Positions 3,713-41,039 of a DNA stretch of 64,000 nucleotides are shown piece after piece. The position numbers and the translations under genes are program-made. The notes under the pieces were generated by a model. That model had not been told where the DNA came from and searched no databases. It was given only the letters and a program-made list of their open reading frames with translations. Numbering within the stretch: the first letter of the stretch is position 1; each line of letters begins with the position of its first letter. The stretch is from a virus: positions 1 to 64,000 of IMG/VR virus record IMGVR_UViG_3300033049_000013; one strand, given 5' to 3'.

Positions 3713-6700
3713 ATGGCATGTCGTGTAGAAAGAAAAGCAAACACAGGTAAAATAGTAAACGTACTAAAGCCCAATGGATTAGTATCAGAAGTTTACAAGA
3801 AATTAAACTTAAAGTATAAGAATGCAGAGGTTGCATTAAGATACTATATGTTAGGATTCACAGAGGATTATATTGATTTCAATGTAAGTCCTAATACTCC
3901 TAGTAATATAAAGTATTTAGCAAAGGAGATAGCAGAGAAATCATCATTAAGGGGTACAGATAATGCTCTATTTATTAATGATGCACAACTTCGTGACATA
4001 GGAAACCAATTAGGAGAAATTCGAATGGATTTATATGTACAGGATATGCTAGGTAATGAATATATAGAACCTCAGTATAGAAATAAGGTAGCAAATCTGT
4101 TGAATCCTTTACTTAAGGAAGTAGAGAGTAGACCTATATTACAAGCATTACTGAATTCAGGTAAAGTAAATGATGTAGAGGCTGCCATTAGATTGGTAGG
4201 AGATCAAAGTGATATATTTAACAAAGTGTTAGAAATAGAACAAGATGTCTTAGAAGTCTTAGAAACTCCAAGCATACTAAGTAAGTATACTGAAATTACA
4301 CAGGATAGAGTAAGTTCAGAAGTTACATTAGATTCAATATTAGGTAGTATTACTAGCTCTATATTTAATCCAAATGGAATTCATGCAGCACTAACTACTG
4401 GATATGTAGCAAATGAATATGAACCTAGTTTCGAAAAACTAGAAAGGTTTATAGATAAGTTACCATCTAATAGTATAACTACTATTCTTCCAAAATTTGT
4501 AACTGAAGCATTAAATAATAAAACAGAAGGAATCAATACTGATGAGTATGCTAGAAGCAGACAATTAGGATTTGATTCTGATATGGCACTTACTACTGCG
4601 TTAGGAGCTAGTCCGATTAAAACAATCGAATCTCCTAGAAGTAGTTTAGTGGAAATAGAGAATGTAAAGAAAAGATTAAAATTATTGTTCGGTAATAATG
4701 TACAAGTTAGTACAGCGTTAGAACAAACACTAGATAACATAGGTCAAGAAGGACTTCCAGGTGGATTCTTTCTAGATAATGTAATCTATTTACATGATGC
4801 AGATGTTGCAGGACATGAGGCTTTTCATAAAGTATTTCATACACTGTTAACAGATAAACAGGCTACAGTGCTTCTTAATGAAGCAAAGAAGAATTTAAAC
4901 TACAGTAAAAAGCAATTGAATAATAAAATTGCCGACTTAATACTACAAGTACCTGCATATAGTGAACTAAGTAGAGAGAGATTAGAAAATCTTGTCTACG
5001 AAGAATATATGGCAGATGAATATCAAGAGTTTTTTACTAACAATAAGACTCCAGAGAATTGGCTTATGTCACTTTTCAATCTTATTAAGAATGTATTTTC
5101 GAGCGTATGGGGTAACCGCACCCAGTTGGAAGCTTTATTCCATAAAATCAACAATCGTGGATTCGCATTTACTAAGCCAAAAAGCAATAAGTACGCTATG
5201 GAACTACCAGTTTTCAAGTTACTTACCATTGGAAAAAGTAAAGATGCTTCAAATAGAACAATTGATATTGTAGCATCAGAATCAGACTCCAATGCACTCA
5301 TTTATGAGATGGCAGGAAGGTTGTATGAAATTATTAATACAACTAAGCCTGAAGGTAGTGTATTGCAAATTGCAGAGGATGAAACAATTACGTTAACTCC
5401 TAGCGATGCACTTAGGAATCCCGAAGAAGCTGTATATAATATTATGCGTGCAAGATCGTATGAATATTCAGAAGAAAACAATATAGACTTATTAGAACAA
5501 TTAGAAGACGAAGAAGAGAAATTAGACAAACTAGTTGGTCAATTAGAGACCAAAGAACAGATGTATAGTCCTAAATTTTCAAGTCAATCTAATATTTCTA
5601 ATGGTGTACTTGTTTGGGAAGAAGTTCAGAAATTGTTCCAAATATTTGGAACTGACTATCTGACAGAGAAGAATGAAGTTGCTGCTGAAAATAAAATGAC
5701 TGCAGAATCACTGGAAATGCAAAATAAAAGCGCTTATGAGTATGACCCTCTTGAATTAAGAGATAAAGACTTAAGAACTTTTATGGGTTTTATACTGTAT
5801 GAAAAAACAGATGAACTTACTGGTAATAAAATAAAGGTAGCTATAGATTCTTCTAGAGTTTATAGTAATTTACTAGTTGCCATGTCATCTAAAGAATTAC
5901 ATGAAACACCCTTTAATACTACACAACAACCTTTCTTGACAACATTAGCTTATTATGCTAAAGATAATGACGAAACTAGAGCTTTCTATAATAAACTTAT
6001 GGAAATTAGTGGAGGAAAGTCTGACCATAACTTAGTTAACTTAGTTAGAAAGAGTTTGGATAACATGAGAATATCATTTACCCAACTATTACAAGATCCT
6101 AATACTGGAAACTTTCAGTTAGTATCTGCTGCAAACATAGATGATGTGGTTGCACAGTTAGATACATGGGATAAAAATTGGAATGATAGCGGATTATCAG
6201 ACAATTATAATAGTAAAGCAAGGAGAAAAGAGAATACAAAAGCATTAAATACTCTATATGAGTTATTAGACCCTACAAAGAATGGAGTAAAGACAATTAT
6301 GTCTTTAGATAATCCTATGATTTTAGATTCTACTACTGGAGATTATGTATTAGATACAAATACTAAGGATAATGTTATTGATAAATTTATTAATGGGTTT
6401 ACAGCAAATAATGGTAGAGAAATCAAATCATTGTTTAAGTTAACAGGTATAGATTTATCAAGAGGATTTATTAGATATAGTATATTGAGAGAATACGATT
6501 TAATTGCTACAAGTAATATAACTGAGTACACGCAACTACAAGATATAATAAGTAATAAGGATTATCAAGGATATAAAGAATTAGCTGAAAGTGAGATTGA
6601 ACATCTTACTAGAAACGATATTCGTGAGATGGTAAGAATATTAGGTAAAAATTATAAGTCTGATGAAGTTGAAGAATATGTAAAAGAAACTACAGGTGTA

Positions 6701-9700: not shown

Positions 9701-12700
9701 GAATCACTTTCTGATGATATTTTAGTTAAGATATGGGGAGAATTAGAAGATTATAAATCTATGTCTCTATTTGGTAAATACATTGACTTTAATAAGGTTG
9801 GTGATATTACTGATGAGAATTACGAGATTTATGATATGTCACTCCGTGCAAGACTGCAAGATAACTATGATGATATTGTAGAACTTGTATTAGGTAAAGA
9901 TAACTACATTGATAATGCTGCTAAGTATCGTGAAGTATTTGGAGCAATTGAAGGTAGACTTATAGGTACTCCTGTAGATCAGTCAGTATCAGAAGTATTG
10001 ATGCCAGCTTGGGATGCATTTACTCATGGTGTTTCCGTTGGAGATACTGTGGATATTAATCATCCAGCTTGGGAATCTATTATGACTCAATTTGGTACTC
10101 GTATCCCTACTCAAGATAAGCACTCGATGATAGTATTTAAAGTAGTAGACTTCTTACCTAGTTATATGGGTGATGTTGCTGTACTACCAATGGAGACTAT
10201 ATTGCTATCAGGTGAGGATTTTGATATTGATGCAAAATACATACAGCGCAAATCATACTATCTTACTAAAGAAGGAACGGTTGATAAAATCAATATTCAC
10301 GGTGAGATACACGATGCGAAAAGTGAAGAAGCTAAATACAAAGAAGTTTTAGGAGAAGACAAAGCAGATAAGTTCAATGAAATTGATGCAATCAAGCATC
10401 GTCATTGGAGGGATTTCTTAGTGTACGTTAAGAAAAACAATAGAGCTGTTAAGTATGATTTTAAGAAACTACAAAAAGCAGAATTAGCAACAGAAGAGTA
10501 TCAAACCTTACTTCAAGAAATTGAAATGGCTAGTAACTTAGGTGATAAGCTTTTGTATGCAGAATTAAGTGATAAAAAGAAAGACCGTAGCAACCAATTG
10601 TTGTTACAAGCTATGACTGAGAATAATCTACCTAGCTCTTTCGAAGAATTTGATGTGGATGCCTTATTAAACAATGATGTTGTAAACAACATTATATTGG
10701 ATTATAATATGGCATTGTATCTGAATGCAGGGACAGTTGCTATTTCTTATACTCCAGCTTCTATGACTAAAATTCAAGGTAATAGAGACACTGGTGTTAG
10801 GGGAATTGCTGAATTAGTAAACTACATAACTGGAGATGATTTAAGTAGTTATGAATATAATACTGCTAATGGACAAATGACTGCTAAGGTATCAAATAAA
10901 ACAGGTGATGACTTGATTGGTCCAGCAGCCGTTGCAAACATTGTAAAGGCAGCATTAGCTAAGTCAGGTGTTAACTTACGTATTAAGCCAGGTAGCATTA
11001 AAGCTAGTATTGGTTTTGATAGTACTTATGATTTTAATACATTTGCTAACTATCACTCTAATGATGTAGAGTTAGCATACTCAATTTCAAATGGTAACAT
11101 TAGAAATGTTTCATTGAGACCAAACTCTGATGGTGAGTATACTACCAAACAATACCGTATTATGGATGAATTGTCTACTGTATTATCAGCAATGACTGAT
11201 AATGCTAAACATAATGATGCGGCAAAATTAAACTTTACCTTAGACACTTTAGGTGCGTATTTATATATGGTATCTTTAGGTATGGGGTTGAATAGAGCTG
11301 TACTAGTATCTAAATCACCTGTAATGGTTCATTACAATAAGATTAAAGCTGCTAGTGATACAGCATTAGTAACAGAACAGGATAAAGATAGAAATTCTAA
11401 AAATTCTGAGAAATTAATAGAGGAGGCTTATGAGACTGCTTCTAAATTGATTCTAGAAAGAATCGAACAATTAGAGAAGAAGGATACTAAGAAACAATTA
11501 AACTCTGTTAATTACCGAAACAATGAAAATTTTAAGCACAAAGATTTAGTTGATATAACTCCACAAGATTCAGGTAATCTAAATTTAGATTCTGGATACA
11601 TTGTAGAAGATATGCAACTAGCTAGGTATTTACGAGATACATATGGTATGGATTATACAGATTCGAATTTCGATAAATCTGTAATTGATACTATGACTTA
11701 TGATGAATTAATTCGAACTAGTCTAGCATTAACTAATCAATTAGATGTATTAACTGCATTTACTAGATTGGCACAGCAAGGTAGTTATCTTACTAGTTTA
11801 TCTAGAATACTTAGATTACATCAAGGGCTTAAACCTTCTTTCCATGAACTTCAAGGAATCTATGATTCTTTAGATGATTTTGGTATTGATTTGAGAAAAG
11901 TAGTATCTAATGTAGCGGATTATAATACAGCCAACTACAATGAGTTACAGATGCCTTTTTCTATTAATAAAGTTTTAGATAAAAATATAGATTTAAAAGT
12001 ATTACTAAAATCTTTTGATAAAGTAATGAAGGCTTCTAAGCATCTATTTATTTCTCAATCAAACACATTTGAAAATGTATTTAATACAATCAAACAGTCA
12101 TTGAGAAGGGGATTACAAGGAAGAGATAGAGTACTTAAAAATATCAAAGGACAGATGATGGGTTTCACCATTATTAATTCAATGCGTGAAAAGTATAAAC
12201 GTGAAGGTAGAACTTTCCCGTTTGACAGTGCTATCCTTTATTCACATTCTGGTGATACTATTTACAATCGTCTTCAAAATATCATAAAGATTGCGAAGAA
12301 AAACAATAACAATGAACTAGGAAATAACCTATTCATTAAGGCTTTACGTCGTACACCTAATAAAGCTAGTACAATTGACATGAGTAACTATCTACCTGAC
12401 GAAATTGAATTCGCAGAAGAAGAGTTCTTAGATAATGTATTAATGGAGTTAGATGAATTGACAGTGAATACACGTACTAAAAATACGCCTGAGTTTAACA
12501 ATCGTGTTATCTCAGCGTATAGAGAGTTAATGACTACTTATATTTTTGATGAGAATGGAAAACCATTAGTGAATGATGCAGGTAAATCAGTAGTAACTGA
12601 ATTTGCTGAAGATTTGTTTAATTATTTAATAATTAGAGATGGTCTACAATTTAAGCATGGTTCTTATCTGAAGTATATAGCACCAGAGATGTACCTAGAA

Positions 12701-17779: not shown

Positions 17780-17789
17780 ATCATATTGC

Positions 17790-17860
17790 CCCTACCTACG
17801 AAAAAATTTTAGTTAGATTAGTGTAATAAAGAGCCGTAGAGTAACAAAACCCTACCTACG
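17790..17860 (+). repeat. 11-bp direct repeat CCCTACCTACG (17790-17800 and 17850-17860)
   Basis: Exact copies 60 bp apart in an AT-rich intergenic region. Confidence 0.85.
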
Positions 17861-17871
17861 GTTCTTTTTTT
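17828..17871 (+). terminator. terminator-like hairpin between RNAP and the 2541-aa gene
   Basis: AAAGAGCCGTAG-(16 nt)-CTACGGTTCTTT running into a 7-T tract. Confidence 0.65.
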
Positions 17872-17908
17872 ATAGTTAACGGAAATATCACTAATAAAAA
17901 ATAAAAAA

Positions 17909-20900: not shown

Positions 20901-23900
20901 TACAAGCTAAACTAGAGGACTTTGAAGACTTACATAAGCTATGGAGATTTACTACTGATGCTATGGATGATATTTTAGGTAGTAGTTCAGAAGATGGTGA
21001 GATACTAATTAAATCATTGGTAGATGTAGTTAAAGAAGCAGAACTATTATACTATCAAGAGAATACTCCAAAGCAATTAGCTAAGACTATTAAGACGTTA
21101 GATGATGTACGTCTGCATGTACAAAGCTATAAAGAATTATTGAATAGAGCTAAGACAATATTTGATAATGCAACTGGTGAAGAACTAGTAGCTATTAAAT
21201 CACATAAGGATTATAAGCGATTAGATAAGACAATTGCTGCTATTAATGATTTAGAGAATAACTATTTTGATTTAGCTAAAGAGTTGATGGCTGAGAGATT
21301 ATTTAAGTATGCTTCTAAGACTGGACAACAAAGTGTTGACTTACATTTTGCAGCTCAAGAAGATAGATTAAATACCGAAATAGAGAGTTTACAGATTGCT
21401 TTAGAGAATGCTAATTCACCAGAAGAAACTGCTAAGATTACAGCAACTATAGAGAAACGTAAAGCTAGACTAAAGGGTATTAATGTAAAGACTGAAGATT
21501 TAACTATTACTAAGGATTCTATATTAAATCATCTTAATCAACTGCCTTATGACATATCGTACATTCAACGTTATTTACTAGCACCTATTAGTTCTAGTGA
21601 CCATATACTAGCACTATATGCTAAGATGTTGAAGTTTAATATTATGGATGCAGAAATATCTCTACAAAAGAAAGGAGTAGATATGCAAACATTCATTGAT
21701 AACTTCTTAGAAAAATTAGGTAAGAAAAATATAGAGTACGATTCAGAGACATTCTTTGAACCTATATTGGAGACTAGAAATATCTGGGTAACTGTTACCA
21801 ATGAAAACGGAGAACGTGAGAAAGCATTAAGACCGGTAAGCGCTTTAGTAGATGAGTATGGAGTTAGAAAACATACATTAGCTAATGGAGAGTTAGTCGA
21901 ATTAGGATATAAAGAAATTATAAACGACTTTAGATTTAGATTAAATGAATTTAGACGTGATAGTAATTTCGATGAGTATAAGAAGCTTAAGAAGGACTTT
22001 GAATCTTGGATGCGTGATAATATGGAAGATGCCTATGTTAAGGAGTACTACGAATTAGAAAAAGTATGGACTGAGGATAGTATAGGTATTGAAGCTAAGT
22101 TACTTAGAGATGAATTTGATGACCAAATTAATGAAATTAGAAATGATTCAGGTAGTGAATTCGAATTAAATAAAGATGAGAAGCATGAGATTGCTAAACT
22201 TAGGTCTAAGAAAAGAGCTTTAGCTAGTATGTATACTGAATCTGGTAAATTAAAATCACTGGAAGAAATAGCTATTGCTAAGAAAATTCAAAAGTTCAGT
22301 GAACTAAATGTTAAGCTACATGACTTTGACTCTAATTATGACTTGTTTGAACATAAGAAAACCTTATTGATTAAGCATATCCAGGATAAGTATAGAAAGT
22401 TAGGTATAACAATCCCTGCTGAACAGACTCCTGAATACTTTGAATGGCTATCAGAAAATCAAGATACTTATTTAACTGACAAGTTCTATAATCGTTACAA
22501 TAAATTGAAGCTGGAAAGAGACTTACAATTTTATGCTGCGTACCATAAAAACTTAGAGCTGAAGAAGTTCTTAAATTCAAGAGAAGCTGAACGTTCAAAT
22601 GATGTTGACTTTGCCACAAAAGCACAAGAAATATTAAAAGGACAAGGACTTACAGTAGATGATTTACATAAAACAGATGCTCAAAGTATTGAAGTATCTG
22701 AGTTAAATGATAAGATTAATCAATTAATTAAGCCGTATAAGATAGGTAAGTATGTTGATTACTCATTAGTTCCTAAGAGTATATTTGTTAAGATAAAACA
22801 AATACAAAATAAGATACAAAACATTTATGCTGACTCAGACTTTAAATCTTTACCAAAGGAAGAAGCTGACAAGTTACTAAATGCACTAAGTATTAGGAAA
22901 ATATATCAATCTAATTTAGATGATTTCGGTAAGTATGAGCCAACTAACAAGTACTGGAAACACTACTATGAAAATAAAGCTATTGCTGAAGATAAAGGAT
23001 TAGATTTAGAAGATTCAACTTGGTTTAAACGTAATCATATATTTAATCCTAGAACAACACGTAATGAGCCTATTCGTATATGGCAAGAATTATTACATAC
23101 TAAAGCTAGTATATTAGGTACTGAGTCTAATAAGTATAGAGCACAAAAACAAGAAGTATTAAAGTCTTTGATGCTTGAATACCCTGACAGGACTAATTCT
23201 TGGTATAAAGAGAAGCTTAAAAAATCTAAATGGTATACTAAGCACCATGATGTAAGTGGTACTATTAAAAGGAGTTCTAGGTACTTACAAGAAGTAGACC
23301 CTGATAATGTATTTACTAAGGTTAGACCTTCTGCTGCTTATTCTACTTTCAAAGTTAAGGAAAAGTACATTAGAGATACTCAACTTAGTAGAGATGAAAA
23401 TGGCGACTTATTACCTAAGAAAAATAAATGGGTTAATAAGAAGTATAAAGATATTCAGAAAAGCAGTACATGGAAATATGCACATGATAACTTATTAGGA
23501 TTCTTTAAAGATGCACAATCAATTTTACCTCAAGAACATAGAATGGGTAATATACTTCCATTCACTAGAAAAGCTAGTAAAGAGATACTTGCAGGTAAAA
23601 AAGGTATTGTAGAGAAAGCTAAAGCTACTGGTAAATTAATAAAAGAGACCTTATTAATAAGTAATGCATTTGACTTAGAAGATGAAGGAGATAAAACTAT
23701 GTATAACTTATCGTTAGATCATAAGAAAATCCCTATGCCTTTTACTAAATCTAATTATGCAGTACAAGAAGAAGTATCTAAGGATGTTATTTCAGGAGTT
23801 ATGCAATACGTAAAAGCTGCCTATAAACATCAAGCTATAGACGATATGATGTCTGAGACTAGAATGCTAATGTCATTAGTAGACAAACGTGAAGGTCAAG

Positions 23901-25534
23901 ATGGCAAAGGAGTTATACGTAGAGATTCAATGGGTAACAAATTCTTTGATTCTATTGCTAAGAAATTAAATAAAGATAGTGAAGAATTAGTACGAGCTGA
24001 TAAGCAAAGTTTAGCATCAGGATTACTTAAAGATTTTATTGAGATGCAAATATTAGGTGAGATGAATAAGCCTTATGAGATTGCAATTCCTTGGTACGAT
24101 GGTAGTCAAGGTAAACTGAGAGTAGATAAAGTAGTAGACGGCTTTATGCAATACGCTTCTATTACTCAAATTGGTGGACTGAATATGGTTGGTGTACTTA
24201 AAGGTGCAGCTAACTCATTACAAGCTCAATTACAAGTAGCTATAGAGAAATCAGCAGGTAAGTATTTTGATAAGAATTCATGGAGAGATGCAATGAGTTT
24301 CTTTAGAAAATCTAATACTGTAAAAGAAGCTTGGCAAGATTTCGGTAGAGCATTTAATACTACATTGAGTGGTCAGATGCGTTCTATCTATGACCCTATG
24401 CAAGGAGACTTCTTAGACCAATATGGTGCTAAGATAGCTGGTAATAAAATACAACGAATGATGAGTACTAGTACTTGGTTCTTTAATCAATATGCTGGTG
24501 AATTCCAAATAGCTATGGCTTCTATGTATGCACTACAAAATAACTACAAGATTGTAGATGGTGAGGTTTATAATAGAGATGAGTTTATTGAGATGAAACG
24601 AATAGAGGCACTGGATAAGAATGAAGCATTTGGTTTCAGTGAGAAATTGTTTGCAGAGCAGGAATTCAAATCTATTGCTAGTAGTCTAAGGGATGCTTAT
24701 GAACTTAAAGATGGTCATATTTCTATCAAAGAAGGAGTCAATTGGCAAATAGGTTCTAATAGAGATAAAGAAATGAAATCTCGCTTACACGCTATTAATA
24801 AAGCATTACAAGGTAACTATAACTCTTTTGACCAACCGACTATACAACGTAACTGGTTAGGTAGACTTCTTATAATGTATAAGAAATATCTAGTACCAGG
24901 AATGTTAAGAAGATTTGGTGGTATTCGTAGAGATGAAGAGCTTGGTGATTTAACATATGGTTACTATAGAAACTTCTTCAAGTTGATGGTACATGATACA
25001 AAAGCTCTATGGGGTGAGTACTATAACAATGTATTAAAGACAGGATTAACTGCTGGTAAAGCTGGTGGTGATTTTGATAGTAAGTTAAGTGACCTTGAAA
25101 GAGAGAATATACGTAGAGCTGCTAAGGAATTAACTTCATTACTTATGTTATTCATGTTAGTAGCTGTAATGGCTCCAGGAGATGATGAAGATAAGTCTAA
25201 GATTAGTAGTACTAGGTATACAGCATTGTATTTAGCTGAACGATTGAAGAAAGAGGTTTCATCAATGTCACCTAATCCAGTTGGCTTAGTAGCCGATAAC
25301 TGGAAACTATTAAGAAGTCCATCAGCTATTAGTGGATTTGTAGACAGATTCTTAAAATTAATAGTTCAAGTTGGTGACCCAACTGCTACGTATGCTAAAG
25401 ATACTGGAATTGCAGAGAAAGGAGATAATAAATTGTATATTAAAGCAAGAAAATTAATGGGTACATTAGCCTTACCAGGATTTGAACCTACTACTTCAAG
25501 AGAAGCATTCGAAAACTTAAATAGATTTATGTAA
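17909..25534 (+). CDS. giant virion cargo (ejected) protein with PD-(D/E)xK nuclease domain, 2541 aa
   Basis: GTKFH, E, IAGQADVL, IYDFKT and QQLTYA (about 19709-20431). N-terminal APNG-x-x-S...TPKFRQWF..W motif of polyvalent proteins; helical C-terminus with a hydrophobic segment (LTSLLMLFMLVAVM); adjacent to the vRNAP. Confidence 0.8.
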   Translation: MTCKFAPNGEKSKVYNEIIKNFNGKLANEVFVTTHTPKFRQWFRDWRQMADGLVMQDSNSYKSIFTRVQNRMDLITNPITNEPIVFYTKGEVVPLLDVEIDAPLQRLLDILPAEYTSTDSSIEDNYEVDRAFVVTDKYEIGSTPIFIRNNNIVLGNKTDLLRYNNSIIKDKETGTYFLYDTGDAVYAQDGSEIDFNQTTIKDTYGLQIAKSVSNQLDKVSISADDIENTYIFEEGYLATNYANIQLEHTVFETLAPSIVETIFIESPLKFENLYNDLVESIDTHDSIVEEINQLYPNKTLNDKRKDILTNSLISLFKNPINNTVTTYRMNNLYRDFTGELNQVLSGFDVNVTEQSSFADLLADIESTPLNTNTTELGSIVDNMINYEEALGAPVVRDPMDQAVEEFRNLVVFDDSIILDEDGNPVTSPHTGIPEIKHDYYDAITAEHILYSVSDLKKEFDILKFDKVRLFWDKMQIGKYGGSPTAKRDVDYIFNVTDEDGKFNVKETQDKRLAFIKAVLAGDVNKYAERYPFSGELEKLKVKYPMRTETIGDPENDQGYYEDASEEAYVNRLKSIFKDTISIPWHEFMWDLRDWQTRTFVGTKFHRMAEAILREEQDRTDEFRDKDIAILKALDNIPNKIKALNKRIFKIEKEYRGVITPTERSMSVGDKIDALRVQFDKVKAYEAENSKDTTTNNDESGRFQKGYHSYEATLDNIASQFYGLDNQLQLYKDLKDLKAHIKSNGGTIKVEVNLTTDKVINHEGDNIRIAGQADVLVIYENKESVNPDFRGKFEIYDFKTTKWEMADSPLLYSKSTHEGHDTIKGMSPQKQMGHAYQQLTYARAVEVELGFEFKDAYIVPVYIPYVNARTFKMVGTKSKPFGIPFTEHGKLEGDSDLVVNIRSFKGATVMEHGVKVRYLSFNELQELTKRRIPSGTTYDGKEAKANQSTAETKLEERTSRRKKSQVDELISDIEKYIQRRIDAIKVTDSKESRSKLKGLQAKLEDFEDLHKLWRFTTDAMDDILGSSSEDGEILIKSLVDVVKEAELLYYQENTPKQLAKTIKTLDDVRLHVQSYKELLNRAKTIFDNATGEELVAIKSHKDYKRLDKTIAAINDLENNYFDLAKELMAERLFKYASKTGQQSVDLHFAAQEDRLNTEIESLQIALENANSPEETAKITATIEKRKARLKGINVKTEDLTITKDSILNHLNQLPYDISYIQRYLLAPISSSDHILALYAKMLKFNIMDAEISLQKKGVDMQTFIDNFLEKLGKKNIEYDSETFFEPILETRNIWVTVTNENGEREKALRPVSALVDEYGVRKHTLANGELVELGYKEIINDFRFRLNEFRRDSNFDEYKKLKKDFESWMRDNMEDAYVKEYYELEKVWTEDSIGIEAKLLRDEFDDQINEIRNDSGSEFELNKDEKHEIAKLRSKKRALASMYTESGKLKSLEEIAIAKKIQKFSELNVKLHDFDSNYDLFEHKKTLLIKHIQDKYRKLGITIPAEQTPEYFEWLSENQDTYLTDKFYNRYNKLKLERDLQFYAAYHKNLELKKFLNSREAERSNDVDFATKAQEILKGQGLTVDDLHKTDAQSIEVSELNDKINQLIKPYKIGKYVDYSLVPKSIFVKIKQIQNKIQNIYADSDFKSLPKEEADKLLNALSIRKIYQSNLDDFGKYEPTNKYWKHYYENKAIAEDKGLDLEDSTWFKRNHIFNPRTTRNEPIRIWQELLHTKASILGTESNKYRAQKQEVLKSLMLEYPDRTNSWYKEKLKKSKWYTKHHDVSGTIKRSSRYLQEVDPDNVFTKVRPSAAYSTFKVKEKYIRDTQLSRDENGDLLPKKNKWVNKKYKDIQKSSTWKYAHDNLLGFFKDAQSILPQEHRMGNILPFTRKASKEILAGKKGIVEKAKATGKLIKETLLISNAFDLEDEGDKTMYNLSLDHKKIPMPFTKSNYAVQEEVSKDVISGVMQYVKAAYKHQAIDDMMSETRMLMSLVDKREGQDGKGVIRRDSMGNKFFDSIAKKLNKDSEELVRADKQSLASGLLKDFIEMQILGEMNKPYEIAIPWYDGSQGKLRVDKVVDGFMQYASITQIGGLNMVGVLKGAANSLQAQLQVAIEKSAGKYFDKNSWRDAMSFFRKSNTVKEAWQDFGRAFNTTLSGQMRSIYDPMQGDFLDQYGAKIAGNKIQRMMSTSTWFFNQYAGEFQIAMASMYALQNNYKIVDGEVYNRDEFIEMKRIEALDKNEAFGFSEKLFAEQEFKSIASSLRDAYELKDGHISIKEGVNWQIGSNRDKEMKSRLHAINKALQGNYNSFDQPTIQRNWLGRLLIMYKKYLVPGMLRRFGGIRRDEELGDLTYGYYRNFFKLMVHDTKALWGEYYNNVLKTGLTAGKAGGDFDSKLSDLERENIRRAAKELTSLLMLFMLVAVMAPGDDEDKSKISSTRYTALYLAERLKKEVSSMSPNPVGLVADNWKLLRSPSAISGFVDRFLKLIVQVGDPTATYAKDTGIAEKGDNKLYIKARKLMGTLALPGFEPTTSREAFENLNRFM

Positions 25535-25540
25535 ATAATA

Positions 25541-25570
25541 GGGGAAACTTAATCGTTTCCCCATTTTTAT
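25541..25570. terminator. terminator between convergent transcription units (probably bidirectional)
   Basis: GGGGAAAC-TTAATC-GTTTCCCC flanked by A/T tracts, in the 36-bp gap between convergent giant genes. Confidence 0.8.
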
Positions 25571-28500
25571 TTATAATTTATAACATCCACGTGTCAAGTC
25601 AACTAAATCGGCTTGTGTACCACTTCTAAGTAATACAGTAGGAGCACCCAAACTAATATCACCTTTAATACTTGAGATAACCCTTTCAATAATAGGTTTA
25701 ATTTCAGTCTTATTAAGTGATTCTGAGTTACGTTCTAAGAAATCCTTATATTGGTCTACAGTAAAATTAGCAACTAAGAAGTAATCTTTCTTAAACTCTT
25801 TAAGAAACTTATTAACAACAGCATAATCTGCTTTATCATTAAACTTCTTCTTACCTAATACTCCACCATATTTCTTAAGCTCACCATATAAAGTCTTGGC
25901 ATTCTCAATTACAGGAGTTTGATATAACAACTGCATATCTTCTATAGTATCTACAGGTTCTACAGGTTTAATTTCATCTAGATTATTTTCAGTAAATTCT
26001 AGTTCTAATTGTTTCTCAACTTGTTCTTCTACTTCAGTCTTAGTTATCTTAACATCAGCTAATCGTAATCCTTTAATTCCTACGTCAGCTAATACTATAT
26101 CCAGCTTACCAAATATATTACGAACTATCTGTTTATGGTCTTTATTATCCCAATCAGGAGTTCTTAAAGCATCTACAATGTTACTAGGTATAATTTCTCC
26201 AGACCTAACAGCAGTTAATATTTCAACTCTAGTAGCTCTCCATACTCCCAATATACTAGCTAGTGTTGGAGCTGAACCATAGTCTAATATAGTTTTCTTA
26301 CTATTTATTACTGCAAGTACTTCAGCATCAGTATATTCTTTGTCTTTCTTTATAGCTTTCTTTTTAACTTTAGGCTTAGGCTTAACTTTAACTACCTCAT
26401 CGACTGGCTTATCATCCTTAATTTTAGGTTTCTTAATCTCAGGTTCAATTTCAATTTCAGTCTCAGTCTTCGCACTCTTAGCTTGCTCTATAATACTATC
26501 CTTAGTATTAGCTATATCGTCGTTTAAGCCCATAAAAATAGAGTTGTTCTCAAACATACTACTAGTTGTAGGGACTTCCATAAACGGTAAAATAGCTTTA
26601 ATACTAGTTACATTTTCAGGCTTAGGTAAACTAACTCCAATATTACCTTCAGTTAATCCATTCTTTAGTAATGAATTCTTTAATCTAGCACCTGAGTTAA
26701 AATCTAATCCTTTAATAATCTGTATAGCTTTACCAGTATTTTTATCTGCTACTTTCAATATAAGAGAATGAGCGTCTAATTTATTACTTCTAATAGAAGC
26801 AAAGTCTACTTCTAACTGAGTTACAGTAGGTCCAAACTTAGCAGGTACTTTAAAGAATAAACCATCTTTACTATCTAATAGAGTATTGATTTCTTTTCTT
26901 AATGCTCCGATTGATTCTGCATTACTTAAATCAATTTCCTGATTATTAAATACATCAATAATATTAGTAATTTTAGTAGCAAAACTATCTAATTCCTCTT
27001 TATTAGCATTACGTGGCTTTAAAGCAATAGGTCTCACTTTATTATTAAGGTCTTTAACTAACATCCAATAACGATTACGCTTACTACTCAATAAATCTGT
27101 AGTAACAACATCCTCTAAATAGCCTCCTATACTAGGGTCATTTATGTCATCTAAACTATGTCCTAATATAGACGTAGCAGATAGACTATTCTTCTCACTT
27201 GGCGAGTCTTCTAAGTCGTAGTTAAATTTATTATCAACAATAATAATCTTACCGTCAATTAAGAACTTCTCCATCTCAGGTCGTATCTCTTTACCATCAT
27301 AGAAGTATTCATCCATGTTGATTCGCTTATTATTATCGTACTCGAAGTCTATACTACCACCAGATACATTGAAGTTTACTAGTTGTTTTAACATCTCAGG
27401 TTCTAATATTGTCTCTGAGTAACCAACTTTGTTATAAATATCTAAGAACTCTTCAAATAACTTAGCTTGCTTGTTAGAACTATCACCAAATGCTTTTAAA
27501 TCTTCATAAGTTAATGTACCACCATTCTTATCTGAATACAATACATTGAATTCATCTAGTATCTCTTGTTGTTCATCAGATGTAGTAGCTAAATCGTATG
27601 CTTTTAACATAACTCCAGGATGATATACCTTATCAGTAGTCTTATCACCTTTAACTTTATGATAGATGTTAGGATTATTAGGATGCCCTGTGTAATACCA
27701 ATCAGGACTATCAGTAGTACCTAAATTAATCTCCATAGCTATATCTAAGTCCATCCAGTTATGAATACCAATGAAGTCCTCTCCTGATGCAACCTTAACA
27801 GGATTAGCATGAAGTAATCCTTGTTCTAATTTCTTAGATGGGTCATCATTCAATTCATTAGCTAATGCTTTATTAACGTTAACTGAGATGTCTTTCTTCA
27901 ATCTAAATCTAACATGGTCTTCTAATTTAAGTCCTTTGGCTTTCAAGTCCCATAAGAATTTAGTAAGTACTGCCTTAGTATTAATAGCTACTTTACTATC
28001 CAATTCTATATTATATAGTTCTTCAGCAAAGCCTTTAATCATATCTTCAACCTCTGCATCTGTATAAGTAGAGTTACCATTGATGTCATCTTTGGCAAGC
28101 TTATCTATCTTGTTCATTACTATTGCAGGAATCTGTCTATATTTCTTACCAAAGTAATTTTTAACTTCATTCTTAATCTTCTTATCATTAGCTTTAGTCT
28201 CCGAGTACATCAATTCACCATATGCATTACTTAGAATACCTGTTAAGTAATCTTTAGGTAACTTCTGAGTCTTATCATAACGATGAATATACATCTTAGT
28301 TATGTAATCGGGAGTATATAGATTCTCTCTAAATGCTCTATTAGTTGTATTCAAAGCTTGAAAGTCATATATATCATCCTTATTTACTTCAATACGATTC
28401 TTAGCCTCATTAGCAGTCTTAAATGGTATCAATACATAACTATCATCTTCCTCTGATATTACCTCATACAGTGTATCGTACTTAGCTTTACTAACTTTAG

Positions 28501-31500
28501 TTAATTCAACTCCATTCTTAAATTTAATTAGTTGTACTAACTTTCTCTTAATATTAAAGTCACCTTCAGTGTCAGAATCCTTAGCTCCTAATGATTCATT
28601 ATAGTCATTTATATTTGCATTGTAAGCATCAATAAATACCTTATCAAATGTATTCTGAATATTCTGAATCATTACATATTGACGATTATTTAAAGCTACT
28701 TCTTTAACTTCTTCAGCCGTCTTATTATTCTTAAAGAATAGTTCTGTTCTAGGTTTAGATCTAGTAATCTTAGAGAAATTAGTTAAGATAGCACTAACTG
28801 CTCCACTTATACTTTCAACTTCTTGTAATGATGTTACAGCTCCTAATTCTAAAGCATTATCTAATACTAAGTCATTTATAGAGTTCTCTAGAATAGCTAA
28901 TAAATTATTATATTGCTCTTCCGAAAACTTAGAAGCAAAGTTATCTATATTTAGTATATCTATTCCAGTAGCCACATCTTCTAAAAGTAATTTACTTACT
29001 TTATTATTTAATAATGTAATTAGTTTAGACTGCTCAATAGAATCAGTTACTAGTTCATTAATTTGGCGACCTAATGGAGCTAACTCACTGATTTGTAATG
29101 CCTCATCAATATCTTCAATAATTGTCTCAGTTAAAGGAACTTCATTCTCAGTATTTAATAATGCAATACGCTCATCTAATGTAGTAGCTAATTCTTGTAT
29201 TAACTCTGCATTAAGACCCGATGACATAATGTTTCTACGAATAATCTCATCTAAGAAAGTTGGACTAGTAGAAGTCTCTATAAGTCCAATGTACTCTTGA
29301 TTCAAATCTGAGTCTACATTAACTACTAAACCTTCACCTTTTAATCGAAGGAATTTCTCCACAGTCATGTGCTCTATGTTATCATTATTATATGTAGGAT
29401 TTAAAGGATGTTGTAATTCAATTAATCCATCTGGATTAACACCTAATAGCATTAAATCCAATCCTTCTATATTATATCGACCAGGTGTAACATCATTAAC
29501 TCCTGTTACTGTAGGTATAATATATGGTGCATGTTTATCTAGTATGTTTGTTAATTCATCTAACTTAGAGAATCCAGTAACACTAGATATAAATTCTACT
29601 ATCAATCCTTTTAATCTTTCCCATAAACTAATCTCACCTTTCTGTTCACTATCATCTCTACCTACTTTTGATTTAATAGTATGAAGGTATGAAGCAAACT
29701 CTTTTTGAGAGAAAGCTTGAGTTATTAATTCTTCTAATCCATTCCTATCACCTAATACTTCTGTTGCTTTCTTAATGTACTCTAATGCATCATATGCCCC
29801 TGCATACATACGTTCTTCTGTTACATTTTCAGTAGCTTGAGCATTGGCAATTTTACTATCTAAGTCTTTAAGTAAGTTACTTAATACTTCAGGTACAGTT
29901 TTACCATCATTTAAACTAAGTATGAAGCGCTTTAAATCAATTACAAACTGTGTAGACTCCTTAGTCTTATTTGGTATCTCATTACGCAATACTACATGAA
30001 TTGCTTCATGTACTAATAGTTCTTTAAAATAACTCAAACTATGAGGTCTTACAGTATCATTAAGTTGAAATACAATAGTATTACTATCTGGTGTAAAGTA
30101 AGCTGGTGTATTAGGGTCTAATTTAATGTTAGCAGGTATCTTATCTACTATTGAGATCTTAGTACCATATTTAATTAAACTGTCTAATAGAGGGCTATAT
30201 TCATCTACTATAGATAATAGAGAACCCCCATCTTCTGACTTGAATTCTATTAGCTTATCTTTAAATATCTGAGCATCTATAGCACCTGTTTCATCTAATA
30301 GAGATTTAATAACCTCCATAAATTCTACTACTCGTTTTCTTTCTTTGACATTCTTATCTCTAGATAATCTATTAACTACATTATCATCACCTTTTCCGTC
30401 TTTACCTTTATCTTTATCATCTTTATCATCTTTCTTCTCTACGTCTTCTGGCTTAACTTCTTCTTCATCAGACTTAGTTTTAGATAAAGCTGCTTCTGCT
30501 TCCTCAGCTATCTTACCCCAATACTTTGTAGAAGCTGCTATGAAGTTTTTTCTACCCTTAACTGAAGTCATTTCTTTAAATGCATCTTCTGCACTAGTAA
30601 CATCGGCTTGGGCAGTATACACTTGAGCATACTGGTCTTTCAGTTTATCTTGAGTATTAGTACGAATCATATTAATATTATCCGTTAATTGCTTCTTAGC
30701 TACGGCTAATGATTCCTTAGATGCATTCTCTAAGTCTTGTCCTGGTGTTAAGTATGAAGATAATGAATCCTTAATTAATTGACTTTTCTCAGCACCAATT
30801 TGTTTCTCTTGATTCTGATAATTAGATTTTAATCCTGCTAAACGTTCTTTAGTTTTAGCTAACAGTTTACTATCTATTTGAGCTGTAGTAAGTCCTATCT
30901 CTTTTGCTAATGTAGGATTAAGTACTCTAAGAGTCTCTAAGTATTGATGATACTCCTCACCTTCTAAGTCTTCTCCAACTTCTAGCATAGCAATAGATTG
31001 TCTTAAACCTTCTTGCTTTTGTGTCAGTTTAACTGATTGTTCTAATCCAGTTACATTTCCTTGCAACTTATTTACTTCATCATTGATTTCAGACTCATGT
31101 TCCTTTAAAGTCTCTAAATGTTTGTTTAGTTTCTTTCTAGAACTAAGTATATTACCTTTCATCAAGAAAGCAGATTTGGCATACTGATGTGACTCAGCAT
31201 CTCCATAATCAAAACGATTAGAAATATCTTTATAGATTTTATCCATCTCCTTGATGGTATCTATAGCTTCCTGAGCTTTAACAACATAACCATTGTCTGT
31301 AGCATCTTCTGCCAGACCCATTGACTGAGCTTTAGTTGTAGTAGTTTTAGCTAAACTTTGTAATTGTTTTACTTGTTCAGTTAATTTCTCAATTTTAGAT
31401 TCACTAGGATTTTCTGATGCTGCTTCTTCTTGAATTTGAGCTTGTATATTCTCTGCTTCTTTTAATGCTTGTTCAGATATACTAGTCTTATTATTTGTAT

Positions 31501-33271
31501 CTCTAATGTTTTCAAAAGTCGCTGTAAGATTCTTTGAAGTACCATTCTTAAATGCTTGATACATATTCAAATCAAACAATTCCATGCGTTTCTGGTCAGC
31601 TAGAGCTTTCACTCTTTCTGCTGGTAGACTAGCATCATTACGAACTATATTAGTAAGCTCATTCATCTTCTTATCAACAGTCAGTAAATCATCAGCTATC
31701 TGTAACTTAACCCTGTTAAATGCAACCTCTTTATCAATAGCTTCTTTCTTAGCTGAACTGATTCTACCTAATGGACCAGTTTCATCTACTGCTTTACCTT
31801 GAGCATCATATACATAATCTCCAGGTTGTACAATAATCTCCTCACCATTCGGTCCCATTTTCTTCTCTTGTGTATCTCCCCTATATCTAGCTTGTTCCTT
31901 ATACCTTGGAGCGTGTTCCATAACAGCAGTCTGTCCTACACCACCTAACATACCTGAGAAGAAACTAACAGCCCCTTCCTCAGACCATGCTGCACCTATA
32001 GTAGCACCTGCAGATTCTAAGTCAAGGAATTTACCAGCCATACCTCTAGCATCTCTTTTAGCGGCTTCTTCGTCAGTCATACGACCTATTCTATCACCTG
32101 ATGCTTCAGCCCATACGTTAACAAGTTCCTCTACCCCTTCTTGTACAGCTTCAGCAGCATAAGATAACTTATTACTTTGAGGTACATAAGCTAAGTTCTT
32201 AATACGTTCTGCAGCTTCGCCAATTCCCTCTCCTTTGAATTGTTTTAATTGATGCTTTATATTACCTAAGTCATCCAATAATTGTCTGTTAGAACGAAAC
32301 ATAGGAGCGACACTGGATAAATTAAGTACAGTATTTACAACTGTATTCAATCTAGTTGTTTGAGCAGCCGCCTCAGCAGCCCTTTTACGTGCATCTTCAT
32401 CCGACTTACCTCTACTTCTTTGTATCTGATATGTTCTATCAAATACTTGAGCACCTGACATAGCACCCTCAACATAAGCTAATGAACCTGATGTAGCTAT
32501 AGCAGCTCCAGCTCTTGCAGCATTTGCAGAAGTAGCAGTTAACGCATTAGCTAACTTAGCTCCTCTACCAAATATAGCACCAGGAATCACTGCAGTTGCA
32601 GCAAATTCACCAATAGATTCAAATAAACCTTGTCCTAATTGTAACCACCATGTTGGATCTGATATATCGGATGCAGCATTAGGACGTTCTCTATAAATTT
32701 CACCTGCGAAATCAGTCAATCCTTCCCTTGCACCTTCTGCAAATCTAGTTAATGAGTTCTCGTAATCACCATCATCATACAATAATGTACCTAAACGACC
32801 CATATTCTCAATTAATCCTAAACCAATACCACCAACAGTCTGTACAATAGCACTACCTGTTTGTTCCAATAATCCTTGATTCTGTGCTCTTAACTTTCTA
32901 TGGTCTATTCCTTTAGTCGGACCAGTTGCAGAACCTAGGTAAGGTTCAAATTTAGACCAATCATCAATATCAGTATGTCCATATAGTCCACTTCTAGCAT
33001 CTACATCTTTATCTACTTCATCACCTCTAGAAGTATCTAATCCCCTAGTTTTACCCCATTGGTCATAGTTACTTTGAAACAAAATATTATCTTCATTAGG
33101 TACAGCATCACTAAATCCTGATAATCCATATTCTAATAAAGCATCATTAGTTACAGGTTCATACCTAGTAATGTCTTGTGTAGTAGATATAGGAGCTGGG
33201 ACTGGTGTTGGAGCAGTATTAATTCCTCCTCCATTTTGATACTTCTTTCTATTATTGTTCTTATTACTCAT
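25571..33271 (-). CDS. giant virion cargo protein with zincin (MPTase) domain, 2566 aa
   Basis: LVHEAIHVV (29996-30010) plus EELITQAFS. Gly/Ala-rich, membrane-like N-terminal region (EAVQEGVEELVN, FFSGMLGG) typical of crAss ejected proteins; position follows the other cargo genes. Confidence 0.8.
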   Translation of the reverse strand: MSNKNNNRKKYQNGGGINTAPTPVPAPISTTQDITRYEPVTNDALLEYGLSGFSDAVPNEDNILFQSNYDQWGKTRGLDTSRGDEVDKDVDARSGLYGHTDIDDWSKFEPYLGSATGPTKGIDHRKLRAQNQGLLEQTGSAIVQTVGGIGLGLIENMGRLGTLLYDDGDYENSLTRFAEGAREGLTDFAGEIYRERPNAASDISDPTWWLQLGQGLFESIGEFAATAVIPGAIFGRGAKLANALTATSANAARAGAAIATSGSLAYVEGAMSGAQVFDRTYQIQRSRGKSDEDARKRAAEAAAQTTRLNTVVNTVLNLSSVAPMFRSNRQLLDDLGNIKHQLKQFKGEGIGEAAERIKNLAYVPQSNKLSYAAEAVQEGVEELVNVWAEASGDRIGRMTDEEAAKRDARGMAGKFLDLESAGATIGAAWSEEGAVSFFSGMLGGVGQTAVMEHAPRYKEQARYRGDTQEKKMGPNGEEIIVQPGDYVYDAQGKAVDETGPLGRISSAKKEAIDKEVAFNRVKLQIADDLLTVDKKMNELTNIVRNDASLPAERVKALADQKRMELFDLNMYQAFKNGTSKNLTATFENIRDTNNKTSISEQALKEAENIQAQIQEEAASENPSESKIEKLTEQVKQLQSLAKTTTTKAQSMGLAEDATDNGYVVKAQEAIDTIKEMDKIYKDISNRFDYGDAESHQYAKSAFLMKGNILSSRKKLNKHLETLKEHESEINDEVNKLQGNVTGLEQSVKLTQKQEGLRQSIAMLEVGEDLEGEEYHQYLETLRVLNPTLAKEIGLTTAQIDSKLLAKTKERLAGLKSNYQNQEKQIGAEKSQLIKDSLSSYLTPGQDLENASKESLAVAKKQLTDNINMIRTNTQDKLKDQYAQVYTAQADVTSAEDAFKEMTSVKGRKNFIAASTKYWGKIAEEAEAALSKTKSDEEEVKPEDVEKKDDKDDKDKGKDGKGDDNVVNRLSRDKNVKERKRVVEFMEVIKSLLDETGAIDAQIFKDKLIEFKSEDGGSLLSIVDEYSPLLDSLIKYGTKISIVDKIPANIKLDPNTPAYFTPDSNTIVFQLNDTVRPHSLSYFKELLVHEAIHVVLRNEIPNKTKESTQFVIDLKRFILSLNDGKTVPEVLSNLLKDLDSKIANAQATENVTEERMYAGAYDALEYIKKATEVLGDRNGLEELITQAFSQKEFASYLHTIKSKVGRDDSEQKGEISLWERLKGLIVEFISSVTGFSKLDELTNILDKHAPYIIPTVTGVNDVTPGRYNIEGLDLMLLGVNPDGLIELQHPLNPTYNNDNIEHMTVEKFLRLKGEGLVVNVDSDLNQEYIGLIETSTSPTFLDEIIRRNIMSSGLNAELIQELATTLDERIALLNTENEVPLTETIIEDIDEALQISELAPLGRQINELVTDSIEQSKLITLLNNKVSKLLLEDVATGIDILNIDNFASKFSEEQYNNLLAILENSINDLVLDNALELGAVTSLQEVESISGAVSAILTNFSKITRSKPRTELFFKNNKTAEEVKEVALNNRQYVMIQNIQNTFDKVFIDAYNANINDYNESLGAKDSDTEGDFNIKRKLVQLIKFKNGVELTKVSKAKYDTLYEVISEEDDSYVLIPFKTANEAKNRIEVNKDDIYDFQALNTTNRAFRENLYTPDYITKMYIHRYDKTQKLPKDYLTGILSNAYGELMYSETKANDKKIKNEVKNYFGKKYRQIPAIVMNKIDKLAKDDINGNSTYTDAEVEDMIKGFAEELYNIELDSKVAINTKAVLTKFLWDLKAKGLKLEDHVRFRLKKDISVNVNKALANELNDDPSKKLEQGLLHANPVKVASGEDFIGIHNWMDLDIAMEINLGTTDSPDWYYTGHPNNPNIYHKVKGDKTTDKVYHPGVMLKAYDLATTSDEQQEILDEFNVLYSDKNGGTLTYEDLKAFGDSSNKQAKLFEEFLDIYNKVGYSETILEPEMLKQLVNFNVSGGSIDFEYDNNKRINMDEYFYDGKEIRPEMEKFLIDGKIIIVDNKFNYDLEDSPSEKNSLSATSILGHSLDDINDPSIGGYLEDVVTTDLLSSKRNRYWMLVKDLNNKVRPIALKPRNANKEELDSFATKITNIIDVFNNQEIDLSNAESIGALRKEINTLLDSKDGLFFKVPAKFGPTVTQLEVDFASIRSNKLDAHSLILKVADKNTGKAIQIIKGLDFNSGARLKNSLLKNGLTEGNIGVSLPKPENVTSIKAILPFMEVPTTSSMFENNSIFMGLNDDIANTKDSIIEQAKSAKTETEIEIEPEIKKPKIKDDKPVDEVVKVKPKPKVKKKAIKKDKEYTDAEVLAVINSKKTILDYGSAPTLASILGVWRATRVEILTAVRSGEIIPSNIVDALRTPDWDNKDHKQIVRNIFGKLDIVLADVGIKGLRLADVKITKTEVEEQVEKQLELEFTENNLDEIKPVEPVDTIEDMQLLYQTPVIENAKTLYGELKKYGGVLGKKKFNDKADYAVVNKFLKEFKKDYFLVANFTVDQYKDFLERNSESLNKTEIKPIIERVISSIKGDISLGAPTVLLRSGTQADLVDLTRGCYKL

Positions 33272-41033: not shown

Positions 41034-41039
41034 TTTTTT
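40995..41039 (-). promoter_or_regulatory. programmed -1 ribosomal frameshift signal
   Basis: Heptamer A-AAA-AAG (41039-41033) in the correct phase, a 6-nt spacer containing the 0-frame stop, then hairpin AAGAGG-G-GGGAC-GTAATA-GTCCC-TAT-CCTCTT (41026-40995). Confidence 0.8.

Follow-up and report, generated by a model that had tools for sequence, protein, structure and literature searches.

Facing terminal cysteines in the giant cargo proteins of a crAss-like phage: candidates for an end-to-end disulfide chain

Three giant cargo proteins, of 2566, 4688 and 2541 amino acids (aa), are encoded in the stretch of viral DNA analysed here (the window: positions 1 to 64,000, that is 64,000 nucleotides, of IMG/VR virus record IMGVR_UViG_3300033049_000013), which comes from a crAss-like phage. 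The largest of them is a putative virion RNA polymerase (vRNAP), and the 2541-aa protein resembles gp49 of phage crAss001. In this window and in its relatives, giant cargo proteins that are consecutive and separate carry one cysteine (Cys) on each facing end. On balance, we favour a reading in which disulfides at these junctions link the 2566-aa protein, the polymerase and the 2541-aa protein, in that order, into a linear chain. That such bonds form in this phage, and what purpose they would serve, we infer from sequence and from analogy.

Cysteine content of the cargo genes

Cysteines were counted in the translations of all open reading frames (ORFs) of at least 150 aa in the window. The seven ORFs that follow the muzzle gene amount to 12,718 aa and contain just four Cys, all encoded by TGT and each no more than four residues from a terminus (Table 1). 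In the other ORFs of the 87,216-bp genome, 128 Cys are found in 14,321 aa (0.89%). From this background about 114 Cys (113.7) would be expected in the seven cargo ORFs against the four observed (Poisson P(<=4) = 3e-43), and the probability that all four would fall within four residues of a terminus is 3.8e-10. A composition bias as the cause of the depletion is ruled out by the out-of-frame codon counts: the alternative two frames of the cargo genes contain 181 and 671 TGT or TGC codons, as opposed to four in frame, so that the depletion acts on the protein and not on base composition. The N-terminal position of Cys3 in the 4688-aa protein is not an effect of a truncated gene call, since an in-frame stop 8 codons upstream, and a TAA four codons upstream in the printed translation, make a longer N-terminus impossible.

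A sequence-only reading of this DNA had picked out by eye the same four Cys at the same positions, and had found none in the 1073-, 956-, 478- and 416-aa cargo proteins. The exact count agrees with it in every instance and adds no further internal Cys. It was also right in holding that the 4688-aa protein is alone in the cargo set in having Cys at both ends, and that structural proteins outside the cargo are rich in Cys, with counts of 17 in the muzzle, 8 in the 230-aa protein, 14 in the 531-aa protein and 3 in the ring protein.

Facing ends in relatives and in cultured phages

The gp49 family was surveyed without selection on Cys. A profile of the gp49 C-terminal domain (alignment A6), which is conserved over about 650 residues, was compared with 1.84 billion representative proteins and matched 4,722 of them. 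Cys positions were read in the best 149 of these 4,722 matches, among which are 125 standalone proteins of 1150-2600 aa. A Cys stands at residues 2-7 in 118 of the 125, and the last ten residues hold a Cys in none; with Cys3 and a Cys-free C-terminus, the 2541-aa protein of the window follows the family pattern of a Cys in the first ~7 residues. Four of the seven exceptions are apparently miscalled genes: read from Met8, P0114 begins with MSNFC, P0122 is 22 residues longer in its contig (L122 9935) and begins there with MAQSC, and P0067 and P0110 are cut off inside the conserved N-terminal motif. The other three (P0112, P0140 and P0153) are without explanation. The same rule reveals a start-codon error in crAss002, where gp33 (L114 9270-22007), read from Met33, begins with MSC.

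Also among the best 149 matches are seven longer gp49-domain proteins, apparently fusions, which have kept the N-terminal Cys. Three gp49-domain proteins of 4488-5199 aa (P0117, P0124 and P0125) have no Cys at all, and their length suggests that they are all-in-one fusions of the whole series. Terminal Cys are invariant in alignments A3-A5, which include the C-termini of gp50 (alignment A4) and the N-termini of gp49 (alignment A5). In every lineage examined the series has Cys-free outer ends, its first protein lacking an N-terminal Cys and its last a C-terminal one; where genes are fused the junction pair is absent. No signal at the DNA level can account for this rule because the facing ends of the first pair (the C-terminus of the 2566-aa protein and the N-terminus of the 4688-aa protein in the window, those of gp47 and gp50 in crAss001) are coded for on opposite strands, with over 10 kb between them. 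Split inteins are ruled out, as no intein fragments are present, and so is a lipoprotein signal, there being neither signal peptide nor lipobox.

Among the relatives of the window proteins, the 2541-aa homologues P0002 (41% identity) and P0003 (38%) have Cys3 as their only Cys, and P0004 (24%) has Cys3 and one other. The sole homologue of the 2566-aa protein, P0007 (40% identity, 3886 aa), has a single Cys at L-2 (L being the last residue) and retains the TRGC context. Nine giants of 3314-5584 aa (P0009-P0017), which share just accessory domains or partial cores with the 4688-aa protein, have 1-4 Cys each; a Cys lies at L or L-2 in all nine, and in five also at position 3 or 4. The sequence-only reading had staked its case on terminal Cys being kept in orthologues, and they are, in proteins that have otherwise diverged. 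Searches for related loci in IMG/VR with the 2541-aa family alignment (A1), and likewise with P0140, returned no match.

Four cultured phages share with the window a layout in which the first protein has a C-terminal Cys, the second a Cys at either end and the third an N-terminal one (C / N+C / N). In phi14:2, a 1797-aa protein whose only Cys is its last residue, a 2180-aa polymerase (PDB 6VR4, crystallised) with Cys3 and Cys2179 alone and a 1421-aa protein with Cys3 alone are encoded co-linearly. In crAss001, the only Cys of gp47 lies at L-2 and that of gp49 is Cys5; gp50 has Cys5, an internal Cys and Cys2404 (L-8), and gp46 is Cys-free. DAC15 repeats the layout of both. The crAss001 and phi14:2 trios resemble the window further in that the three-protein series comes after the muzzle and small Cys-free cargo genes, and the convergent gene arrangement of the window is that of crAss001. 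The window proteins are about twice as long as their counterparts, and the 4688-aa and 2566-aa proteins have no detectable overall sequence similarity to gp50 and gp47. In phi17:2, gp39 (1957 aa) ends in its sole Cys, gp38 (517 aa) bears one near either end (Cys4 and Cys516), and gp36 (1914 aa) has Cys3 only; three cargo proteins upstream of the gp39 series have none. It had been proposed that flipping the plus-strand block of the window would give the order 2566, 4688, 2541, and this is the actual co-linear order in phi14:2, phi17:2 and an IMG/VR locus (L067).

Two-link versions, made of a fused giant and one further protein, occur in crAss002 and cr11_1 (Intestiviridae), in cr127_1 (Crevaviridae), in four Suoliviridae and in FpV4. 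One C-terminal Cys faces one Cys at positions 3-5 in each of the first three and in the Suoliviridae; in FpV4, the only Cys of gp32 (4287 aa) lies at L-1, and gp33, the product of the following gene, begins with MAC. The C / N+C / N layout is seen in four Crassvirales families. In Steigviridae loci, the IMG/VR relatives of crAss001, 273 of 274 distinct Cys-poor ORFs of at least 1000 aa fall into class N, C or N+C.

The confinement of Cys to protein ends, as claimed by the sequence-only reading, holds for the window and is not universal. In locus L122 (352-9933 and 14000-23824), two upstream giants have 37 and 17 internal Cys and still have Cys at L-1 and L-4, and the IAS virus has many internal Cys while keeping the terminal ones. 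Since the L122 giants retain terminal Cys despite their internal ones, these residues are maintained independently of the general purge. The L122 crassvirus is a natural case that could show what relaxes that purge. Ejection proteins of N4 and T7 resemble the window cargo in being (almost) Cys-free: N4 vRNAP gp50 (3500 aa; L124 14524-25026), gp51 and gp52 have none, compared with 1.1-1.4% Cys in N4 DNA polymerase and primase, and T7 gp15 and gp16 (L123 2326-8552) have none, with only Cys2 in gp14. Like the window cargo, they have to travel through a narrow channel; they differ from it in having no terminal Cys pairs. The purge is therefore general, and the junction pairs are an extra of crAss-like phages and cyanopodophage A4.

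The candidate chain and its competitors

In the proposed chain, Cys2563 of the 2566-aa protein would bond to Cys3 of the polymerase, and Cys4688 of the polymerase to Cys3 of the 2541-aa protein. The product would be one unbranched thread of about 9,800 residues, with disulfides most likely forming once the particle exits the reducing cytoplasm and being reduced after delivery to the cytoplasm of the next host. The papers on N4 and crAss001 argue that ejected proteins pass the channel at least partly unfolded (for crAss001, PMC10172136). Because such proteins must traverse the portal and tail channel in this state, all other Cys would have been purged: a non-terminal cross-link would make a branch or a loop unable to thread, whereas an end-to-end link stays linear. 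The link would serve equimolar co-packaging, sequential ejection in which each protein pulls the next into the channel, or both; a static staple of the internal core, as in A4, is possible alongside these two roles.

The precedent for such a bond is the cryo-electron microscopy (cryo-EM) structure of A4, in which gp27 Cys1715 forms a disulfide with gp26 Cys5 and the C-terminal helix of gp27 is inserted in a cleft of gp26 (PMC12002296). The authors report a single such bond, in one phage, to which they ascribe the stabilisation of a static pentameric core, and state no rule (PMC12002296). In the A-4L genome, gp27 and gp26 are products of adjacent genes; the only Cys of gp27 (1717 aa) lies at L-2, and that of gp26 (1114 aa) is Cys5 (MSKHC). 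Cys are absent from gp29, and the two in gp28 are three residues apart. The sole Cys thus lie at the facing ends of consecutive ejection proteins, at L-2 and residue 5 in A-4L as compared with L-3 or L-0 and residue 3 in the window. The A4 genes are co-oriented, and the MSKHC of gp26 resembles the MSKRC of crAss001 gp50. A4 differs from the window in having one link instead of two, no polymerase in the chain and no demonstrated role in ordered ejection. Tail proteins of the crAss001 virion form disulfides (PMC10172136).

Structural models were made of two N-termini. An AlphaFold 2 (AF2) model of the crAss001 gp49 N-terminus reached a predicted local distance difference test score (pLDDT) of 88.7, with residues 1-4 disordered (pLDDT <50) and Cys5 at the tip of the fold, so that in the model this residue is plausibly accessible for an intermolecular bond. 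The model of the N-terminus of the window's 2541-aa protein (alignment A7) had a pLDDT of 36.9 and was not used. Compared with the PDB by Foldseek, the gp49 model gave nothing significant (best E 0.03). Its best VIA match, for aa 6-81, was the N-terminus of the phi14:2 polymerase (6VR4 chain B 2-96; Z 6.8, 71 residues, root-mean-square deviation 3.2 A, 22% identity), a hint that the two proteins bearing an N-terminal Cys have a small module in common at that end. Homology between the two N-termini is not claimed, as a profile-profile comparison (hhalign) of gp50 and gp49 N-termini found no match (probability 0.13).

Several observations weigh against the disulfide chain. Physical evidence for a cargo disulfide exists neither for the window phage nor for any crAss-like phage, and the crAss001 atlas resolved none of gp47, gp49 and gp50 (PMC10172136). 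Searches with phmmer and a small profile revealed no sequence similarity between A4 gp26-gp29 and crAss-type cargo, and the gp49 N-terminal model was unmatched to A4 gp26 (PDB 9K3A) by Foldseek and VIA (400 residues, one partner), so that the A4 precedent is one of analogy and not of homology. Some Cys are unaccounted for by the pairing scheme, namely Cys5 of FpV4 gp30, Cys1461 of FpV4 gp33 and Cys390/398 of crAss001 gp45. In the IAS virus, the gp50 equivalent is annotated as two ORFs with an 11-nt overlap (L116 11019-20001), of which gp55 has Cys5 and a Cys at L-3 and gp56 is without an N-terminal Cys; the record contains an ambiguous base, and either a sequencing frameshift or a junction that breaks the rule would account for this. 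The loss of the pair on fusion would also be expected if Cys were merely tolerated at termini. The gut in which many crassviruses live is anoxic, which makes spontaneous oxidation less certain. Finally, Cys counts alone cannot separate an N-to-C chain from other pairings.

Other explanations appear weaker than the disulfide chain because none of them predicts the facing-ends rule. Unlikely, though the best of these, is an anchoring of the cargo in which each terminal Cys bonds, by a disulfide or a metal, to a Cys-rich structural protein such as portal, ring, hub or muzzle. Tail and muzzle proteins are indeed rich in Cys, crAss001 tail proteins use disulfides, and the muzzle of that phage has bound to it a 14-residue stretch of cargo that is unassigned. 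Anchoring would nonetheless predict neither facing ends nor equal numbers of N- and C-terminal Cys, nor the zero Cys of proteins long enough to be all-in-one fusions, and a covalent anchor in the shell would hinder ejection outside a reducing compartment. The metal variant is without support since no conserved second ligand, His or Cys, adjoins any terminus. Of the terminal bridging of cargo that had been suggested from the sequence, as disulfides or metal bridges, it is the disulfide part that finds support, in conservation, in the facing ends and in the bond seen by cryo-EM in A4 (PMC12002296); the unfolded state of the cargo, its ordered packaging or ejection and its release in the reducing cytoplasm, which that reading also put forward, remain proposals.

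Slightly less probable again are disulfides that pair in other ways, either with the polymerase closed on itself (Cys3-Cys4688) and the C-terminus of the 2566-aa protein bonded to the N-terminus of the 2541-aa protein, or between like ends (C-C, N-N, homodimers). These pairings fit the Cys counts of three-link phages, and homodimers are conceivable given that each protein is believed to be packaged in multiple copies (for crAss001 an estimated ~6 apiece). In two-link phages, by contrast, the only heterotypic option is the C-terminus of the first protein with the N-terminus of the second, and the only solved case, A4, joins a C-terminal Cys to Cys5 of the next gene's product. A self-closed ring of 4688 aa would have to thread as a hairpin, and like-end pairing leaves the Cys-free outer ends of the first and last proteins unexplained. 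Least credible by some distance is a role without bridging (a packaging or processing signal, acylation, redox sensing after injection) or the neutral survival of terminal Cys: termini are often disordered, as in the gp49 model, and the N-terminal contexts are basic (MAKKC, MSKRC, MACK) and readable as a signal, but neutral survival is excluded by the conservation seen in the survey and in alignments A3-A5, among representatives at less than 50% mutual identity and in distant families, while the missing lipobox and signal peptide and the unexplained facing ends speak against the other roles, and N- and C-terminal contexts share nothing but the thiol, which favours thiol chemistry.

Gene identities and significance

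The window contains a muzzle gene of crAss_MUZ type beside a tail ring protein gene, the combination that marks the crAss-type virion module (Table 1). The muzzle N-terminus matches just the FpV4 group and the phi17:2/phi4:1 phages, at 26-28% identity, which makes the 88-kb Flavobacterium phage FpV4 group and the Cellulophaga phages phi17:2 and phi4:1 the nearest cultured phages by this protein; the FpV4 group and phi17:2 fall outside Crassvirales. A 505-aa ORF (54105-55622), guessed to be the major capsid protein, had no tblastn match among 50,697 phage records. With the muzzle pointing to these groups and this ORF matching nothing, the phage is, judging by its sequence, crAss-like, and its membership of Crassvirales is not demonstrable. 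Family searches with the 1073-aa and 956-aa cargo proteins were without match.

Table 1. Positions in the window of the cargo, muzzle and ring genes, of the four cargo Cys codons and of the polymerase motif
Feature	Position	Strand	Remarks
2566-aa cargo protein, proposed first link	25571..33271	-	single Cys2563 (L-3), tail ...TRGCYKL; N-terminal Cys absent; position of crAss001 gp47
TGT codon of Cys2563, 2566-aa protein	25583..25585	-	proposed donor to Cys3 of 4688-aa protein
4688-aa protein, proposed middle link, putative virion RNA polymerase	3713..17779	+	Cys3 (MAC...) and Cys4688 (last residue) only; position of crAss001 gp50 and phi14:2 vRNAP
TGT codon of Cys3, 4688-aa protein	3719..3721	+	
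DFDID motif, aa 2169-2173 of 4688-aa protein	10217..10231	+	crAss-type RNA polymerase metal-binding motif (putative)
TGT codon of Cys4688, 4688-aa protein	17774..17776	+	directly before TAA; proposed donor to Cys3 of 2541-aa protein
2541-aa protein, proposed last link, gp49-family member	17909..25534	+	single Cys3 (MTC...); C-terminal Cys absent
TGT codon of Cys3, 2541-aa protein	17915..17917	+	
1073-aa cargo protein	33273..36494	-	0 Cys
956-aa cargo protein	36519..39389	-	0 Cys
478-aa cargo ORF	39480..40916	-	0 Cys
416-aa cargo ORF	41027..42277	-	0 Cys
Muzzle protein, 1764 aa	42290..47584	-	17 Cys; Pfam crAss_MUZ PF25731 E 3.9e-37, 128 bits vs cutoff 27; phrog_15100 E 1.7e-99; starts cargo gene series
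Tail ring protein 1, 345 aa	47599..48636	-	3 Cys; Pfam CrAss_Ring_1 PF24228 E 1.5e-25

The 2541-aa protein, by a phmmer match of its aa 1833-2514 to aa 694-1319 of crAss001 gp49 (E 1.8e-18), is a homologue of gp49. It also has the sole strongly hydrophobic 19-residue segment in the seven cargo proteins (aa 2404-2422, window 25118-25174, mean Kyte-Doolittle 1.8), which is situated in the conserved C-terminal domain of gp49 type and may serve for insertion into a membrane.

For the 4688-aa protein, the label of RNA polymerase given in the sequence-only reading is upheld by a catalytic-type motif and by gene position, while sequence searches did not detect a polymerase. DFDID is the sole D.D.D match in its 4688 aa, and the context G-x-DFD[IV]D-x-x-Y is common to this protein (aa 2169), the phi14:2 vRNAP (aa 1361) and crAss001 gp50 (aa 1483). 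Comparison by phmmer with PDB sequences gave no polymerase match at E<=1, comparison with the phi14:2 and crAss001 proteins was likewise without a polymerase match, and the Pfam and PHROGs searches matched accessory domains alone. Motif and position, and not homology search, thus support its assignment as the predicted virion RNA polymerase. The accessory domains, DprA-like (phrog_768, E 1.9e-10) and AlkB-like 2-oxoglutarate (2OG)-Fe(II) oxygenase (PF13532, below cutoff), occupy aa 3912-4370 (window 15446-16822) in the C-terminal quarter of the protein and are shared by most of its database 'homologues'. They recur in another order and position in otherwise unrelated giant Cys-poor proteins (P0009-P0015), and for this reason there seems to be a shuffling of injected accessory enzyme modules between giant cargo proteins.

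Both gaps between the giant genes contain hairpins. The 36 nt (25535-25570) that separate the 2541-aa gene from the 2566-aa gene, which converges on it, form a perfect GGGGAAAC/GTTTCCCC hairpin with A/T runs on either side, probably a bidirectional terminator. The gap from the polymerase gene to the 2541-aa gene (17780-17908) holds CCCTACCTACG twice, the second copy within a CCGTAG...CTACGG hairpin followed by a T run, and crAss002 (L114 9100-9270) has a similar CGTAG/CTACG hairpin and T run between its two giant genes. The polymerase and 2541-aa links may be transcribed separately.

Full-text literature searches found no paper describing terminal Cys in crAss-type cargo and none stating that ejection proteins lack Cys as a rule; what they did bring up was the A4 paper and the crAss001 atlas alone. 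In the main text of the atlas the word cysteine is absent, and disulfides are mentioned for the tail only (PMC10172136). The single bond of A4 being already known, what is new here, as read from the sequences, is a multi-link version that would include the virion polymerase and is conserved across Crassvirales and the Flavobacteriia-phage relatives.

By what means, and in which order, podophages get proteins as large as 250-500 kDa, a complete RNA polymerase among them, through a channel of 3-5 nm is an open question, which concerns N4-like phages as well as crassviruses, the most abundant phages of the human gut. As a tentative extension, the giant cargo of crAss-like phages and their Flavobacteriia-phage relatives might be packaged and injected as a disulfide-linked unbranched train of 6,000-10,000 residues, with reductive release freeing the polymerase for transcription. 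Gene order would then be physical order, and fusions and fissions would be tolerated because a peptide bond and a terminal disulfide would be interchangeable, a corollary that we regard as equally speculative.

Already of practical use, the rule of facing Cys corrects start codons in crAss002 gp33, P0114 and P0122, all of them giant cargo genes, and points out cargo genes in phage contigs that lack annotation. If the disulfide chain is real, end-to-end coupling would give protein ejection a concrete physical basis. It would also explain the extreme avoidance of Cys in ejected proteins, the free fusion and splitting of their genes and the joint presence of three RNA polymerase-associated proteins in virions.

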